From NCBI RefSeq assembly GCF_003334785.1, contig NZ_QOWV01000002.1: DNA of 64,000 nt. The stretch is one strand, 5' to 3'. Shown in pieces: positions 3,833-9,907 of the stretch; positions within the stretch are counted from its first letter, which is position 1, and each line of letters starts with the position of its first letter. The stretch is from Escherichia coli. GTDB lineage: Bacteria > Pseudomonadota > Gammaproteobacteria > Enterobacterales > Enterobacteriaceae. Both the position numbers and the translations under genes were made by a program. The notes beneath the pieces were generated by a model, which saw only the letters and a program-made list of their open reading frames with translations, did no database searches and was not told where the DNA came from.

Positions 3833-3867
3833 CTGAAAAAGAAGGGATAGTAGATAGACGCAGAGCG

Positions 3868-4719
3868 TTAAGTGAACTGTGTACGACTATCGCCAAAATA
3901 CTCTAAACATAACTGCCTGAATTTTGCCCGCCATTCATCGATATTAAAATCATAGCGTTCCTGAAATGCAGTCGTTTCACTGGACATTATCCAGGCATAA
4001 TTATGTAACAGGGTTAATGCCTGAAGCGGTTTTCTCTGCGCAAAATAAGTATCAACACACATCTGCATCAAGGGGTAATTATTATTTTCCTTTGTTCCTC
4101 CAAAGCTAAGATCTAATCCTTGTTCTTTAATGCACTGAATCACAGGATCATCCTGGAAATTCGGGACATCTGCGGCCTGTGACAGCAAATGAATGACTTT
4201 ATTGTCAGGAACACCAAATGCCCAATTGCCAAGATAAGCATTAAGCGCAGCCTGTGCTGCAGCTTCTGTTTTTTTACATCGGCGATACTGGATTGCCAGT
4301 GCTAACCAATATTCGCTGACTTCAGGCAATTGTTCTGTTGCTCGCTGTAACAGTGGCAGTGCGTCATCAAGCCTTCCCGTTGAAAGACATTTCCGAGCAA
4401 CACGGAAGAGATTTGCTGCAAAGTCTTGATCTTCGATGCTGATGCCATTTTCATGGGGATCATCATCATTCACTTCCAGCCATTCTTCGAACTTCTTAAT
4501 GCTGGAAAAGGCAGGTACGATTCGCCATTCGTCATGGTACGTTTCGCACACTATAGGTAGTTTATGCTCCTGACCAATAGGCCAGTACAAACCGAAACAG
4601 TCTCCGTTACCATATGCTGCATCTGTAAGTACGGTAAATCCGTTCGGAGGAAAAGGCCCCGGGCAAATTCCATCAATGCCAGGTGAAATATCACTACTGC
4701 GAGGAATAAGTTTCATCAT
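3868..4719 (-). CDS. yfbP: Uncharacterized protein YfbP
   Basis: 283-aa ORF (MMKLIPRSSDISPG...); recalled as yfbP; no recognised catalytic motif. Confidence 0.75.
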   Translation of the reverse strand: MMKLIPRSSDISPGIDGICPGPFPPNGFTVLTDAAYGNGDCFGLYWPIGQEHKLPIVCETYHDEWRIVPAFSSIKKFEEWLEVNDDDPHENGISIEDQDFAANLFRVARKCLSTGRLDDALPLLQRATEQLPEVSEYWLALAIQYRRCKKTEAAAQAALNAYLGNWAFGVPDNKVIHLLSQAADVPNFQDDPVIQCIKEQGLDLSFGGTKENNNYPLMQMCVDTYFAQRKPLQALTLLHNYAWIMSSETTAFQERYDFNIDEWRAKFRQLCLEYFGDSRTQFT

Positions 4720-4774
4720 GTTCCTTCACATAAAAATTTATGTAAACATCCGCTTATCTGTTTATATAAATGTT

Positions 4775-5251
4775 TTAATCCCACCAACAAGTAACCGGAT
4801 GCATACCCACAGGGACTTCAACCCATCCATGCTCCGTATCTTCTGACCATCCTTCCCAGCACTCATCAGGGGCAATTTCTTCTACAAACCAGCTCTGAAC
4901 TTCTTCTGGTGAAGCAGTGGTGATAACTAAAATACTTTCACTAAAGGGCCAGTCTGGGTCATCGAACATCGTAATTTCTACCAAAACATCACTAACATTG
5001 TTACGCTCACGTATTTTCAGAAAATGGTGATAGATAGCTTGCGGAGATTGTTCTGGAATCACATTGCAACATATTGAACCATGGATATTATTGTCAATAA
5101 AAAAATCCTCAAGAGATAACAATGGACGAGGAGTATCAGGATTATTAACATCACCATTGATATTAACAAGTTGGGTAATGCGTTCTAAAGGTGTCATAAT
5201 TATTCCCTGAAATAATATATTCATCAAACGAATGACATTGTTTGAATTCAT
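4775..5251 (-). CDS. yfbO: Uncharacterized protein YfbO (start uncertain; possibly at 5197)
   Basis: 158-aa track ORF; internal Met (MTPLERITQ...) would give about 140 aa; AT-rich coding sequence. Confidence 0.65.
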   Translation of the reverse strand: MNSNNVIRLMNILFQGIIMTPLERITQLVNINGDVNNPDTPRPLLSLEDFFIDNNIHGSICCNVIPEQSPQAIYHHFLKIRERNNVSDVLVEITMFDDPDWPFSESILVITTASPEEVQSWFVEEIAPDECWEGWSEDTEHGWVEVPVGMHPVTCWWD

Positions 5252-5405
5252 TAGCAGATAAATAGTGACAATTCCATACGTATTATTAGTTTCAAGAGCA
5301 TCATAACATGAATGTTAAGCAGGAAAACGTGAGATATTCAGTCAGGCCGGGTCGTTATCCAGACGTTGTTATATTTAATATCATAAATATTTAAAGGGGT
5401 TTGAC

Positions 5406-6122
5406 ATGGAATGGTTAAGTGAAATTCGTAAACTTCGGAAGAACGTACCTGTCGGTATCCAGGTTGCCAGACGTTTGTTAGAGAGGACTGGCGGTGATGT
5501 TGATGAAGCCATCAAGTTGTTTCATATTGACCAAATCAATATATTGACGGCAAAAGCAGACGTCACTCATCAGGAAGCAGAGAATGTTTTGTTGGCTACA
5601 AACTATGATATTGCAGAAGCTCTTCGGCGTATTGATGAACAACGCTATACACTGACGGAATTGATTTTGCGTAAAAATAAGGATGCCGGAGATGCCTTAA
5701 ACAATATAGCATTGGCGATTGAATATGAGTGGGATCTCAAGCGTAAGTTTTGGTTTGGTTTTGCAGATATCCAATTATTACCGCCAGTTTTACAAACATT
5801 TATGCTGGTTTATGAATGGCATGAATATGTTGGTTGGGAAGGAATGGAGTGTGGGATATTTTTTGAAAGTGATCATACTCACCAGCAATTGCAAGCTTTG
5901 GGGTTATTAGAACTCGCCCAAAAAATGGTTACTGCAAGAATCCGATATGATGAGCTAAAAGACAAGGCCGAAAATTTTCACGAGATTACAGAGGATGACA
6001 TATTCAAAATGCTTATAATACATTGTGACCAACTTGCAAGAGAGGTTGATTCTATATTACTGCAATTTGTGAAGGACAATATTGATGTTTTCCCGTGTCG
6101 CCATAACAGACACGAGTTATAA
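5406..6122 (+). CDS. yfbN: Uncharacterized protein YfbN with N-terminal tandem EF-Ts-N/UBA-like motifs
   Basis: 238-aa ORF; residues about 5-40 (IRKLRKNVPVGIQVARRLLERTGGDVDEAIKLF) and about 50-75 (QEAENVLLATNYDIAEALRRI) resemble the EF-Ts N-terminal UBA-like fold pattern. Confidence 0.75.
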   Translation: MEWLSEIRKLRKNVPVGIQVARRLLERTGGDVDEAIKLFHIDQINILTAKADVTHQEAENVLLATNYDIAEALRRIDEQRYTLTELILRKNKDAGDALNNIALAIEYEWDLKRKFWFGFADIQLLPPVLQTFMLVYEWHEYVGWEGMECGIFFESDHTHQQLQALGLLELAQKMVTARIRYDELKDKAENFHEITEDDIFKMLIIHCDQLAREVDSILLQFVKDNIDVFPCRHNRHEL

Positions 6123-6394
6123 AAAATAATCCCAAAATTGAACAGGCTTTTTATCTACCTGGTAATGACAGGTTCAATTCCGTTTTCATCAAGCATGACA
6201 GATCGTTGCCAGCACAGAGGATATCGCTGTTACATACCGAATATACGGTATTGCATTTAACAATGCGACTAAGCAAGCATTTAGTAATATTTATACAAGG
6301 GGATAAAAACCGGACCATGGTTAAAGATTTTTTCAAGATGATCCTGGCGTAAATCTTAACTAATGGGTCTTTCTCCCCCAGGCATCAAGCTATA

Positions 6395-6898
6395 TCACCC
6401 AACAATAACCGTCAGCGCATGATTCCCTTGTCGCAGCATACGTCGATACGCGCTAATCAGCTTTTCCATATCAAGCATGATCGAGGCAAAGAGTTGCCCC
6501 TCTAACTCTTCTGAAAAGGTCACTCCCGGATAAATCTCCATTTCATTGAGTCGCTTAATGGAAAACTGTTTACGCAGTTCATTTCGATCCAGTGATTCCA
6601 GTCGGTCGATTGTCGCGGCTAACTCCTGATTCCAGGTCAATCCAAGGAAGCCATCTATGCCATCTTCGAGGCTGTGTTCACCAAGCACGGCACGACTCAG
6701 CGGATCATTCTTCGCGGGATCAAAAGCAGAGGTGCCTGTCAGCCCAAAGTGTAAAAAATCCCAGCGTTTATCAATATCCAGTCGGCGTAATCCTGAAAGC
6801 GTGTCATGTATATTATCCATCAAAGGTTTTTCAGTAGACTCAAGCAGTTGGTTAATCTTTTCTGAGTCAATTTCTGCAAAATAGCCAATCATTCCCAT
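6395..6898 (-). CDS. yfbM: Uncharacterized protein YfbM (DUF1877-type)
   Basis: 167-aa ORF MGMIGYFAEIDSEKINQLL...; length matches recalled YfbM. Confidence 0.75.
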   Translation of the reverse strand: MGMIGYFAEIDSEKINQLLESTEKPLMDNIHDTLSGLRRLDIDKRWDFLHFGLTGTSAFDPAKNDPLSRAVLGEHSLEDGIDGFLGLTWNQELAATIDRLESLDRNELRKQFSIKRLNEMEIYPGVTFSEELEGQLFASIMLDMEKLISAYRRMLRQGNHALTVIVG

Positions 6899-7000
6899 TT
6901 ATTTTTCCTCCGTTGAATTTCATGTTTCGCATCTTAAAACAGATGAGGGAAAATAAAATGTGCATGTCGCTTTTTCTGGACCCGCCTCGAGAAATTTTTA

Positions 7001-7978
7001 TTATTTACTGTTGTATAACAAAGTTATAACACCATCCACTACCTGAGCCATTTTCTGATAATTCAATCTGTCTGCGGTATCACCGGGCAAGTGGTATTGT
7101 TTATTACGATAAAAAGCGGTGTCAGTAATCATTATGGCGGGAATATCGTGTTGCCAATAATTCAGGTGGTCAGAGAAATCAATACCGGGAATAAACCCTG
7201 GGGTATTCATAGAATAAACAGATAAATCCTGAGATGACAACAATGCCGCTTTTACCTGACGAACGGCGTTGATATCCTGTATTCTGCCGACCACGGCAAT
7301 AAAGTCTCCCCGATCGGGATAAAGCCAGGACATTGCCGGGTAAGGGTAATTCTGGCTTCCAGGCGCAGAGTCGTAATAGCCAATCATCTCCAGTGCTATC
7401 ATTAATTTCACTGGACGCTCAAGCGAAGCTGCATGCACCGCGCTCCCCATTTCATCGCTACGAAAGAAGGGCGGTTCTTCCGACGCATAGGCGACCAGCT
7501 GCACGCCTGTTTTCGGTACTTGCTGATGTAACAAACGTGCCAGTTCGAGTAATCCTGCCACACCGCTGGCGTTATCATCCGCGCCCGGCGTATAGGTCAA
7601 TTGATCGTTTTCATAACTGCTGGCAGAGTCATAATGCGCACCAATAATAATCAGCGGTCCATCGGCAGGACCATAATCAGCAACAATGTTTTTGTAGGGG
7701 CCACCCGTAATGGGGACGTCCTGCGAGGTAACTCTGGCACCGCTACTGACAAAGACCTCTTTTATATATTCTGCGGACCTATTCAGATTATCAATATTGT
7801 CGGCACTACGTGGATGCACAGTTTGTGTAAGATAACGAACTGTTTTTTCTAATTGCTCAGGACTTGCGTGTCGGGGCGTTGACGGTAATGCATTGACCCA
7901 GGGTTGGTAAAAAATAATCATAGGGAGTAAAAACACAAATAATATAATAAAAGCAAAGATTATTTTTTTCATATGCAA
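7001..7978 (-). CDS. yfbL: Putative M28-family aminopeptidase YfbL (start probably at 7972)
   Basis: 325-aa ORF with N-terminal signal/TM segment (MKKIIFAFIILFVFLLPMII) and peptidase-like core (HYDSASSYENDQ..., GADDNASGVAGLLELARLL). Confidence 0.8.
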   Translation of the reverse strand: MHMKKIIFAFIILFVFLLPMIIFYQPWVNALPSTPRHASPEQLEKTVRYLTQTVHPRSADNIDNLNRSAEYIKEVFVSSGARVTSQDVPITGGPYKNIVADYGPADGPLIIIGAHYDSASSYENDQLTYTPGADDNASGVAGLLELARLLHQQVPKTGVQLVAYASEEPPFFRSDEMGSAVHAASLERPVKLMIALEMIGYYDSAPGSQNYPYPAMSWLYPDRGDFIAVVGRIQDINAVRQVKAALLSSQDLSVYSMNTPGFIPGIDFSDHLNYWQHDIPAIMITDTAFYRNKQYHLPGDTADRLNYQKMAQVVDGVITLLYNSK

Positions 7979-8109
7979 ATTATTAATGGGTTGCGTTGTT
8001 GAATCATTATTTGCTATGGGTTTCGATATTGTATTTTATTAAGATTAGCAGGATTATACAAAGAGTATATTTTATGTCTGGTGCCTGAGTTTATTTAAAA
8101 GGATTTTAT

Positions 8110-9837
8110 ATGCGAAATAAAAATATAATCATGTTGCTTATGAGTAGTTTGATTTTGTCAGGATGTGGGCCGCAACCTGAGAATAAGGAAAGTCAGCAAC
8201 AACAACCCAGTACTCCCACAGAGCAGCAAGTGCTTGCCGCGCAGCAAGCTGCAATAAAAGAGGCTGAGCAAAGCGCCGCCGCCGCGAAAGCCTTGGCCCA
8301 GCAAGAAGTGCAACAATATTCAGACAAACAGGCTTTACAGGGGCGATTGCAGGAAGCGCCAACATTTGCAAGAGCGGCTAAAGCAAAAGCTACACATATC
8401 GCAAATCCAGGAACCGCTCGCTACCAGCAGTTCGATGATAATCCGGTTAAGCAGGTAGCGCAAAATCCGTTGGCGACGTTTAGTCTTGACGTTGACACTG
8501 GCAGTTATGCGAATGTAAGGCGTTTCCTCAATCAAGGGCTGTTACCTCCGCCAGACGCTGTGCGGGTGGAGGAGATAGTCAATTATTTCCCGTCTGATTG
8601 GGATATCAAAGACAAACAATCTATTCCGGCCTCTAAGCCAATACCTTTCGCTATGCGCTACGAATTGGCACCTGCACCATGGAATGAACAGCGAACATTG
8701 CTGAAAGTTGATATCCTGGCGAAAGATCGCAAAAGTGAAGAGTTACCAGCTTCTAATCTGGTCTTTCTTATCGACACTTCTGGTTCAATGATTTCTGATG
8801 AACGTTTGCCACTTATCCAGTCTTCGTTGAAATTATTGGTCAAAGAACTTCGTGAGCAGGATAACATTGCCATCGTGACCTACGCTGGCGACTCCCGTAT
8901 TGCATTGCCTTCTATCTCCGGGAGTCATAAGGCGGAAATTAATGCCGCAATTGATTCGCTGGATGCCGAAGGCAGTACCAATGGCGGTGCCGGGCTGGAA
9001 CTGGCTTATCAGCAGGCGACGAAGGGGTTTATTAAGGGCGGCATCAATCGCATTTTATTAGCCACTGACGGTGACTTTAACGTTGGCATTGACGATCCAA
9101 AATCGATTGAATCAATGGTCAAAAAACAGCGGGAGTCTGGTGTTACTCTGTCGACGTTTGGCGTGGGGAATAGCAATTACAACGAGGCAATGATGGTGCG
9201 AATTGCCGATGTTGGTAACGGCAACTACAGCTACATTGATACCCTCTCTGAAGCGCAGAAAGTATTGAATAGTGAAATGCGGCAGATGTTGATTACCGTA
9301 GCAAAAGATGTCAAAGCGCAAATTGAGTTTAACCCCGCGTGGGTAACGGAATACCGTCAGATTGGTTATGAAAAGCGCCAACTTCGGGTGGAACATTTTA
9401 ATAACGACAACGTTGATGCAGGGGATATAGGCGCAGGCAAACATATAACGTTGTTATTCGAATTAACGCTGAACGGGCAAAAAGCATCAATTGATAAGTT
9501 ACGCTATGCCCCGGATAACAAATTAGCGAAATCGGACAAAACGAAAGAACTGGCCTGGTTAAAAATTCGCTGGAAATACCCGCAGGGAAAAGAAAGTCAG
9601 TTAGTTGAATTCCCGCTGGGGCCAACAATAAACGCGCCCTCTGAAGATATGCGTTTTCGCGCAGCAGTAGCTGCATATGGGCAAAAGTTACGCGGTTCTG
9701 AATACCTGAACAATACCTCCTGGCAGCAGATCAAACAGTGGGCTCAGCAGGCAAAAGGGGAAGATCCACAGGGTTACAGGGCGGAATTTATTCGCCTGAT
9801 TGAACTGGCGGATGGTGTGACTGACATCAGTCAGTGA
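8110..9837 (+). CDS. yfbK: von Willebrand factor A domain lipoprotein YfbK
   Basis: 575-aa ORF; lipobox LILSGC at N-terminus, Q/A-rich linker, vWA MIDAS motif DTSGSM (LVFLIDTSGSMISDERLPL). Confidence 0.85.
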   Translation: MRNKNIIMLLMSSLILSGCGPQPENKESQQQQPSTPTEQQVLAAQQAAIKEAEQSAAAAKALAQQEVQQYSDKQALQGRLQEAPTFARAAKAKATHIANPGTARYQQFDDNPVKQVAQNPLATFSLDVDTGSYANVRRFLNQGLLPPPDAVRVEEIVNYFPSDWDIKDKQSIPASKPIPFAMRYELAPAPWNEQRTLLKVDILAKDRKSEELPASNLVFLIDTSGSMISDERLPLIQSSLKLLVKELREQDNIAIVTYAGDSRIALPSISGSHKAEINAAIDSLDAEGSTNGGAGLELAYQQATKGFIKGGINRILLATDGDFNVGIDDPKSIESMVKKQRESGVTLSTFGVGNSNYNEAMMVRIADVGNGNYSYIDTLSEAQKVLNSEMRQMLITVAKDVKAQIEFNPAWVTEYRQIGYEKRQLRVEHFNNDNVDAGDIGAGKHITLLFELTLNGQKASIDKLRYAPDNKLAKSDKTKELAWLKIRWKYPQGKESQLVEFPLGPTINAPSEDMRFRAAVAAYGQKLRGSEYLNNTSWQQIKQWAQQAKGEDPQGYRAEFIRLIELADGVTDISQ

Positions 9838-9859
9838 TGACTGTTTAGCAAACTATGTT

Positions 9860-9890
9860 CGACCAGTCAGCATATTTGCTGACTGGTCGA
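9860..9890. terminator. Perfect 13-bp palindromic hairpin between convergent yfbK and elaD (bidirectional terminator candidate)
   Basis: cgaccagtcagca-tattt-tgctgactggtcg, flanked by A/T-rich sequence on both sides. Confidence 0.55.
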
Positions 9891-9907
9891 ATTAATTAAC
9901 AATGATG

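Follow-up and report, generated by a model that had tools for sequence, protein, structure and literature searches.

The stretch of DNA analysed here (the window, 64,000 nucleotides from Escherichia coli, contig NZ_QOWV01000002.1) covers the nuo-yfb-elaD-men region of a K-12-type chromosome and is 99.98% identical over 15 kb to the MG1655 record NZ_CP032667.1. It carries yfbN, a gene with an ATG start codon whose product is 100% identical to the annotated YfbN of K-12 MG1655 (WP_000455114.1, 'protein YfbN' in RefSeq). In this study, we describe YfbN, as read from its sequence, as a soluble protein of two modules, namely an N-terminal double UBA-like module and an acidic, all-helical C-terminal domain with a fold like that of DMP19. 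Neither a signal peptide nor a transmembrane segment is visible in the sequence. The positions of all features are collected in Table 1.

The N-terminal module of YfbN

The AlphaFold2 model of YfbN, built on a family alignment of 102 sequences, has a mean predicted local distance difference test score (pLDDT) of 95.9 and a predicted template modelling score (pTM) of 0.87. All fold assignments given here come from this predicted structure and from computed comparisons. The N-terminal part of the model consists of five helices (residues 4-13, 18-27, 32-51, 55-64 and 69-80) and contains the UBA-like fold, a compact bundle of three helices and about 40 residues that can be superposed on solved UBA, CUE or TAP-C domains. 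In Foldseek searches with the model, the UBA domain of TNK1 was matched at a probability of 1.00 and the N-terminal domains of EF-Ts superposed with a root-mean-square deviation of 1.8-2.0 A over 47-50 residues. The UBA domains of Dcn1, p47, TDP2, Ede1 and Rad23 were also among the fold matches. According to the model, the two UBA-like units are fused via a common helix (32-51) and are not separate domains; this five-helix arrangement, in which two UBA-like halves share the long central helix, is that of the TNK1/ACK type.

The support from sequence profiles is marginal for each match and consistent in direction. A Pfam scan of YfbN returned UBA_4 (residues 19-42, E 0.0032) as the best match as well as UBA_HYPK and CUE, every match to a UBA family lying below the curated family threshold. 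Across the family, UBA_4 is found at E <= 0.1 in 31 of the 102 members and at E <= 0.001 in one of them. The archaeal NAC C-terminal UBA domain (TIGR00264, residues 42-76, E 0.0016) was obtained from NCBIfam. When the profile of the 102 relatives was compared with PDB sequences, UBA-like domains dominated, including the UBA domains of Dcn1 (0.0045) and FAM100B (0.0049) at residues 41-81; TNK1, NAC, p47, EF-Ts, Ede1, OTUD7A, Mex67 and TDP2 appeared in the same list. A profile of the N-terminal 92 residues placed E. coli EF-Ts first (E 0.005, YfbN 6-52 against EF-Ts 7-53) and the TNK1 UBA domain second (0.0083).

The two units are related to each other. Their family profiles align in hhalign (residues 3-44 against 38-82, probability 95%, E 3.6e-8, 39 columns) and we therefore regard them as an internal duplication. 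Unit 1 is conserved at L10, R11, P15, G17, L24, L25, G30, A35 and F39, each found in 68-94% of the members. The unit aligns in register with EF-Ts, whose L11-R12...G18...A25-L26...G31-D32...A36-I37 correspond to L10-R11...G17...L24-L25...G30-D31...A35-I36 of YfbN. Unit 2 is conserved at K50, A58, L62, D68, A72 and L73. Whereas unit 1 shows both the loop-1 glycine and the hydrophobic-core pattern, unit 2 keeps the core without the loop glycine. The module as a whole is neutral in net charge. The initial annotation of this locus had recognised two EF-Ts-N/UBA-like motifs in YfbN at residues of about 5-40 and 50-75, and the peptides that it quoted, LLERTGGDVDEAIKLF and EAENVLLATNYDIAEALRRI, are found in the protein at residues 24-39 and 57-76. 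The two units are confirmed by the AlphaFold2 model, Foldseek, the profiles and hhalign, and the UBA-like three-helix bundle, for which an AlphaFold model and Foldseek had been suggested as a check, is present in the model. Only the extents had to be refined, to about 4-41 and 40-80, so that the units overlap.

The resemblance to EF-Ts could be read functionally, in that unit 1 would mimic the EF-Ts N-domain, dock on the G domain of EF-Tu and modulate translation. In favour of such a role, EF-Ts is the top PDB profile match of the module, in register, and superposes closely; moreover, deletion of yfbN raised the yield of recombinant GFP (PMC7376861). However, the positions in common form the core of any UBA-like fold and do not discriminate, and the E-value is marginal. 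YfbN also lacks the EF-Ts core domain for nucleotide exchange, no EF_TS match being found in Pfam, and the effect of the deletion did not extend to a second reporter protein, asparaginase, whose yield barely rose (PMC7376861). We consider binding to EF-Tu an improbable function.

The module is also joined to C-termini unrelated to that of YfbN. Two such proteins, P0134 (L015 1785-2465) and P0143 (L017 1970-2587), have no Pfam match in this part, and proteins of about 200 residues with the module and an unrelated C-terminal domain occur in the AlphaFold database in Flavobacterium, Capnocytophaga, Acinetobacter, Myroides and metagenomes (AFDB50 ranks 40-50). Since it is found with unrelated C-terminal domains, the module behaves as a portable unit.

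The C-terminal domain and the YfbN family

Between the two modules lies a connector helix, which is the best-conserved linear motif of the YfbN family (YTLTELILRK in YfbN, with TLTERIL as the consensus of a wider alignment). The C-terminal domain behind it is larger than the N-terminal module and had been overlooked in the initial annotation. In the model it adopts the DMP19-type all-helical fold, and in AFDB50 a 'DUF4375 domain-containing protein' of Taibaiella soli matches it at a template modelling score (TM) of 0.81. The family keeps the motif E137-W138..Y141...E145-G146...A150 and the terminal F229-P230. Concerning its net charge, the domain carries -15 in E. coli as compared to a family median of -8. 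The high pTM suggests that the two modules are packed in a fixed relative orientation in the predicted structure.

Table 1. Features of yfbN and its surroundings in the window
Feature	Residues	Position	Strand	Basis
Low-GC insertion of 2,561 bp with yfbP (-), yfbO (-) and yfbN (+)		3833..6393	.	Comparison with an empty-site genome (L014)
Shine-Dalgarno-like AAGGGG, 6 nt 5' of the ATG		5394..5399	+	Read from the sequence
yfbN coding sequence, 238 codons and stop		5406..6122	+	Open reading frame list; 100% identity to annotated yfbN
Predicted UBA-like unit 1, EF-Ts-N-like (helices 4-13, 18-27, start of 32-51)	4-41	5415..5528	+	AlphaFold2, EF-Ts matches, UBA_4, conservation
Predicted long central helix (helix 3 of unit 1 and helix 1 of unit 2)	32-51	5499..5558	+	AlphaFold2; TNK1 analogy
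Predicted UBA-like unit 2, UBA_4/Dcn1/NAC type	40-80	5523..5645	+	Dcn1, FAM100B and NAC matches; hhalign
Connector helix, Y-T-L-T-E-[LR]-I-L-R-K	81-90	5646..5675	+	Invariant in 8-sequence alignment; helix 83-90 in AlphaFold2
Acidic all-helical C-terminal domain, DMP19/DUF4375-like fold	93-230	5682..6095	+	
Short CRHNRHEL tail, low confidence, enterobacterial members only		6096..6119	+	Alignments; pLDDT < 50 at residues 236-238

A phmmer search over 1.84 billion representatives found 134 relatives of YfbN (cluster-50), with E < 1e-10 for 87. Almost without exception they have 230-250 residues and align end to end, which argues for a single conserved architecture. Profile searches of an index of 5.8 billion proteins with either the N-terminal module or the C-terminal domain yielded only Escherichia sequences and known family members, with no new architectures and no link to DUF4375. 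Full-length homologues with 71-87% identity are found in other Escherichia lineages. The full-length structural homologues in AFDB50 (TM 0.8-0.95) belong mainly to Chitinophaga, Hymenobacter, Chryseobacterium, Taibaiella and Aquimarina, and also to Leminorella and Superficieibacter. Most members of the family come from Bacteroidota of soil and water that are largely free-living, plus Janthinobacterium. Two database entries call for a remark. A homologue of 263 residues (A0AAD1F5Z9) is labelled 'Novel E3 ligase domain-containing protein'. Among the top PDB fold matches listed, none is a structure of NEL type. A 'Protein YfbN (Fragment)' attributed to Streptomyces antimycoticus is 100% identical and probably stems from E. 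coli contamination.

Gene contexts were obtained from 11 exact-protein look-ups. Neighbouring genes were contained in nine non-Escherichia contexts, two of them belonging to variants with the N-terminal module only. A Superficieibacter-like genome (L002 8001-9649) has homologues of YfbN (47% identity) and YfbP (61% identity) side by side at the nuoN-yfbL site, as in E. coli, but in altered order; yfbO and yfbM are missing there and a cheV-like gene takes the place of elaD. The distant homologues, in Janthinobacterium, Chitinophaga vietnamensis, a Dysgonomonas-like genome and several metagenomic contigs, are solitary genes with no shared neighbour, and tblastn found no relatives of YfbP, YfbO, YfbM or ElaD in their loci. 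In the Dysgonomonas-like genome (L011 6001-6702) the homologue lies within a tryptophan-biosynthesis operon, between trpD-like and trpC/F/A-like genes, in the company of a flavodoxin-like protein, a chorismate mutase, an MFS transporter and a phosphatase. At two further loci (L012, L013) homologues are embedded in extended series of small, co-oriented genes lacking Pfam matches, together with ankyrin and TPR proteins and DUF4274. These two recall arrays of accessory or immunity-type genes and were considered as possible immunity islands; they are not enough for such a call, since the other contexts do not show this pattern and include ordinary housekeeping ones.

The yfbP-yfbO-yfbN cassette and elaD

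In E. coli, yfbN belongs to the insertion given in Table 1, which ends at the nuoN terminator on one side and at the yfbM stop codon on the other; the empty site has 17 unrelated bases instead. The complete cassette of yfbP, yfbO and yfbN is present in 936 of 5426 complete E. coli genomes, and in the remainder nuoN abuts yfbM. The insertion has a GC content of 36-43% as compared to 52-59% in nuo. It is part of a wider block of low GC (34-47%, about 3900-11400) comprising yfbP, yfbO, yfbN, yfbM, yfbL, yfbK and elaD, in which at least two pieces vary independently. For the stretch from yfbP to elaD, in which yfbN lies, a GC content of 36-46% was obtained. Its low GC is consistent with horizontally acquired DNA. 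The other products add little. YfbO has no match in Pfam or the PDB, YfbP matches only TPR repeats and YfbM is DUF1877. A SUKH-like N-terminus of YfbP (an immunity-protein family) was dropped, Pfam at E <= 0.1 giving no support. Two short open reading frames overlapping yfbN, at 5478-5642 (-) and 5719-5910 (+), are mechanical and without support. Between 3500 and 7200 of the window, no Rfam family is found and promoter- or terminator-like sites are not more frequent than in shuffled sequence.

The gene itself is found in 980 of the 5426 genomes (18%), with an intact open reading frame at >= 99% identity in 953. Some copies are interrupted. An IS1 element lies inside yfbN of strain ETEC1739 (NZ_CP122758.1, H1), and an IS903B-family element lies inside the yfbP-yfbM stretch of MB51 (NZ_CP073946.1, H16). 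Expression of yfbN is very weak, with a base mean of about 16 reads (PMC9068703). The gene is listed with marks of H-NS binding, and overexpression of SlyA induces it 2.8-fold (PMC5797941). From these data the K-12 gene could be a silenced remnant: the fold would be functional in the Bacteroidota source lineages, and yfbN of K-12 would be held down by H-NS and have no role. Low GC, patchy occurrence, interruption by insertion sequences, very low expression and H-NS binding all fit. Against it stand the intact and highly similar open reading frame in so many genomes, the full-length homologues in other Escherichia lineages and the reported phenotypes of knockout and overexpression. We consider it unlikely, though to be taken into account, that the gene is without any role.

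The neighbouring elaD gene was the starting point of another explanation. The initial annotation had placed yfbN about 4 kb from elaD, which is correct (3.8 kb), and had derived from this and from the tandem UBA-like module a possible ubiquitin-related or host-interaction role, with co-occurrence of the two genes across Enterobacteriaceae as a check. In that case the double UBA-like module would read host mono- or polyubiquitin and act together with the deubiquitinase ElaD. The structural comparisons would allow it: the best match is the UBA domain of TNK1, a nanomolar binder of polyubiquitin with the same five-helix layout, and ubiquitin-binding UBA domains such as those of Dcn1, p47, TDP2, Ede1 and Rad23 are among the fold matches.

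The distribution of the genes speaks otherwise. A match to elaD was obtained in 4477 of the 5426 genomes (82%), so that about 3500 genomes have elaD without yfbN. In 976 genomes the stretch from yfbN to elaD is contiguous at >= 99% identity, so that elaD probably accompanies yfbN in almost every genome that has the latter. This overlap is no specific association, because elaD is present in 82% of all genomes. The two genes lie on different insertions, and an ElaD relative is absent from all 15 loci with non-Escherichia homologues of YfbN. Neither a specific co-occurrence nor the role tied to elaD is supported by these counts, the separate insertion and the free-living members of the family.

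The protein offers further arguments against a ubiquitin reader. It has no evident secretion signal, the loop-1 glycine of ubiquitin-binding UBA domains is missing from unit 2, unit 1 has PVGI in place of MGF/Y, and all sequence matches to UBA families fall below their thresholds. In the window, elaD is frameshifted as well. The gene (9911-11118, -) is broken near 10387-10390, where one base is missing from a run of T as compared to NZ_CP032667.1. The codons for residues 1-244 are thereby out of frame with those for 244-403 and cut off from the catalytic C-terminal part, and the longest open reading frame encodes 249 amino acids. Besides the deletion there are two substitutions, and this elaD matches no complete genome at 100%. 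The frameshift reflects either a genuine pseudogene or an error in sequencing the homopolymer. Taken together, we hold a reader of host ubiquitin to be very improbable. Binding of eukaryotic ubiquitin is likewise unlikely as a function of the family, since its homologues come largely from free-living organisms.

A candidate stoichiometric binder and its known relatives

Concerning enzymatic functions, YfbN gave no match to an enzyme family in Pfam, NCBIfam, PADLOC or PHROGs. A defence or phage origin was rejected as well, since PADLOC gave zero matches for YfbN, YfbO, YfbP and YfbM and the PHROG matches were insignificant. UBA-like domains serve quite generally as platforms for binding proteins, for ubiquitin in TNK1, Dcn1 and p47, for EF-Tu in EF-Ts and for FG nucleoporins in TAP-C. 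Because no catalytic signature is present and both modules have protein-recognition folds in the model, we propose, tentatively and as the best-supported reading, that YfbN may bind a bacterial protein stoichiometrically in the cytoplasm, either as an adaptor or as an inhibitor of the decoy type. A basic surface of the target, which may be one that binds nucleic acid, would be masked by the acidic DMP19-like domain, and further contact with a protein would come from the double UBA-like module. In E. coli, yfbN is a poorly expressed, H-NS-bound passenger of the 2.56-kb cassette, which was probably acquired horizontally.

Candidate partners would be DNA-binding proteins, by analogy with DMP19, and toxins. 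DMP19 is an acidic mimic of DNA and covers the surfaces by which the transcription factor NHTF and HU bind DNA (PMC3384305, PMC5722371). A toxin is suggested by a genome-wide overexpression screen against the retron-Sen2 toxin RcaT, in which yfbN was a blocker hit and was taken into blocker validation. There, RcaT toxicity was relieved by all selected blockers according to the preprint; yfbO was added to the validation for its linkage and appears in the trigger-screen table as well (bioRxiv 10.1101/2020.06.22.160242).

Several points weigh against a stoichiometric binder of this kind. The profile of the C-terminal domain finds neither DMP19 (3WUR) in the PDB nor PF14300 in Pfam. PF14300 is matched at E <= 0.1 by just 3 of 102 members (best 5.3e-3) and YfbN itself has no match, so that the predicted relationship to DMP19 is one of fold only. 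Even though DMP19-like in fold, YfbN is not demonstrably a member of PF14300. The nine non-Escherichia contexts, two of which have the N-terminal module only, share no conserved neighbour, of XRE type or otherwise, that would point to a partner. For RcaT, the evidence is one overexpression screen reported in a preprint, and the effect may be an indirect one. Finally, the phenotypes reported for yfbN knockouts, which besides the changed protein yields include an aberrant colony morphology (PMC4096534), do not point to a mechanism.

The proposal can be extended from YfbN to its family, which would then consist of bacterial decoys or neutralisers with a TNK1-type module as a portable targeting unit. 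The effector-binding domain joined to this unit would be exchangeable, being DMP19-like in YfbN and unrelated to that in P0134 and P0143. YfbN would bind toxins such as RcaT directly and block them, or would bind a bacterial ubiquitin-like protein. We regard this extension as a long shot. The proposal of a stoichiometric binder or inhibitor for YfbN itself moves one member of the uncharacterised fraction of the K-12 proteome from 'protein of unknown function' to a testable hypothesis. A make-up of two binding folds would explain the absence of an enzymatic signature, and a tempting, unsupported link of yfbN to ubiquitin biology and ElaD is removed.

Among known systems, the UBA domain of TNK1 (PDB 7TCY) is the nearest to the N-terminal module. 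It binds polyubiquitin and is built of five helices, one of which is described as a 'long central (3rd) helix' (PMC10312729); the YfbN model shares this layout with TNK1/ACK1. Whereas the UBA domain of TNK1 is a C-terminal appendage of a eukaryotic kinase binding polyubiquitin, the module of YfbN is N-terminal, bacterial and predicted to pack on a DMP19-like domain. This double UBA-like layout has so far been solved solely for a human kinase. Unit 1 resembles EF-Ts in register at EF-Ts 7-53 (LR...G...AL...GD...AI). Due to the missing core domain, YfbN is not an EF-Ts; it has no EF_TS domain in Pfam or NCBIfam, neither core nor dimerisation domain, a DMP19-like domain instead and a second UBA-like unit that EF-Ts does not have. 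Unit 2 fits the pattern h..h(T)....A..hL....[YW]D...A of the UBA_4/Dcn1/p47/NAC type (E 0.0016-0.005) but lies below the curated thresholds and lacks the loop-1 glycine. The C-terminal domain shares its predicted fold with DMP19, the DNA mimic of Neisseria (PF14300, DMP19/DUF4375; PDB 3WUR), at 12% identity. DMP19 stands alone and binds the XRE-type NHTF, whereas YfbN has the added N-terminal module and no conserved neighbour. YfbN is a divergent new member of known fold classes, from a K-12 protein family that had lacked annotation, rather than a new kind of system, and the gain lies in the annotation of its domains.
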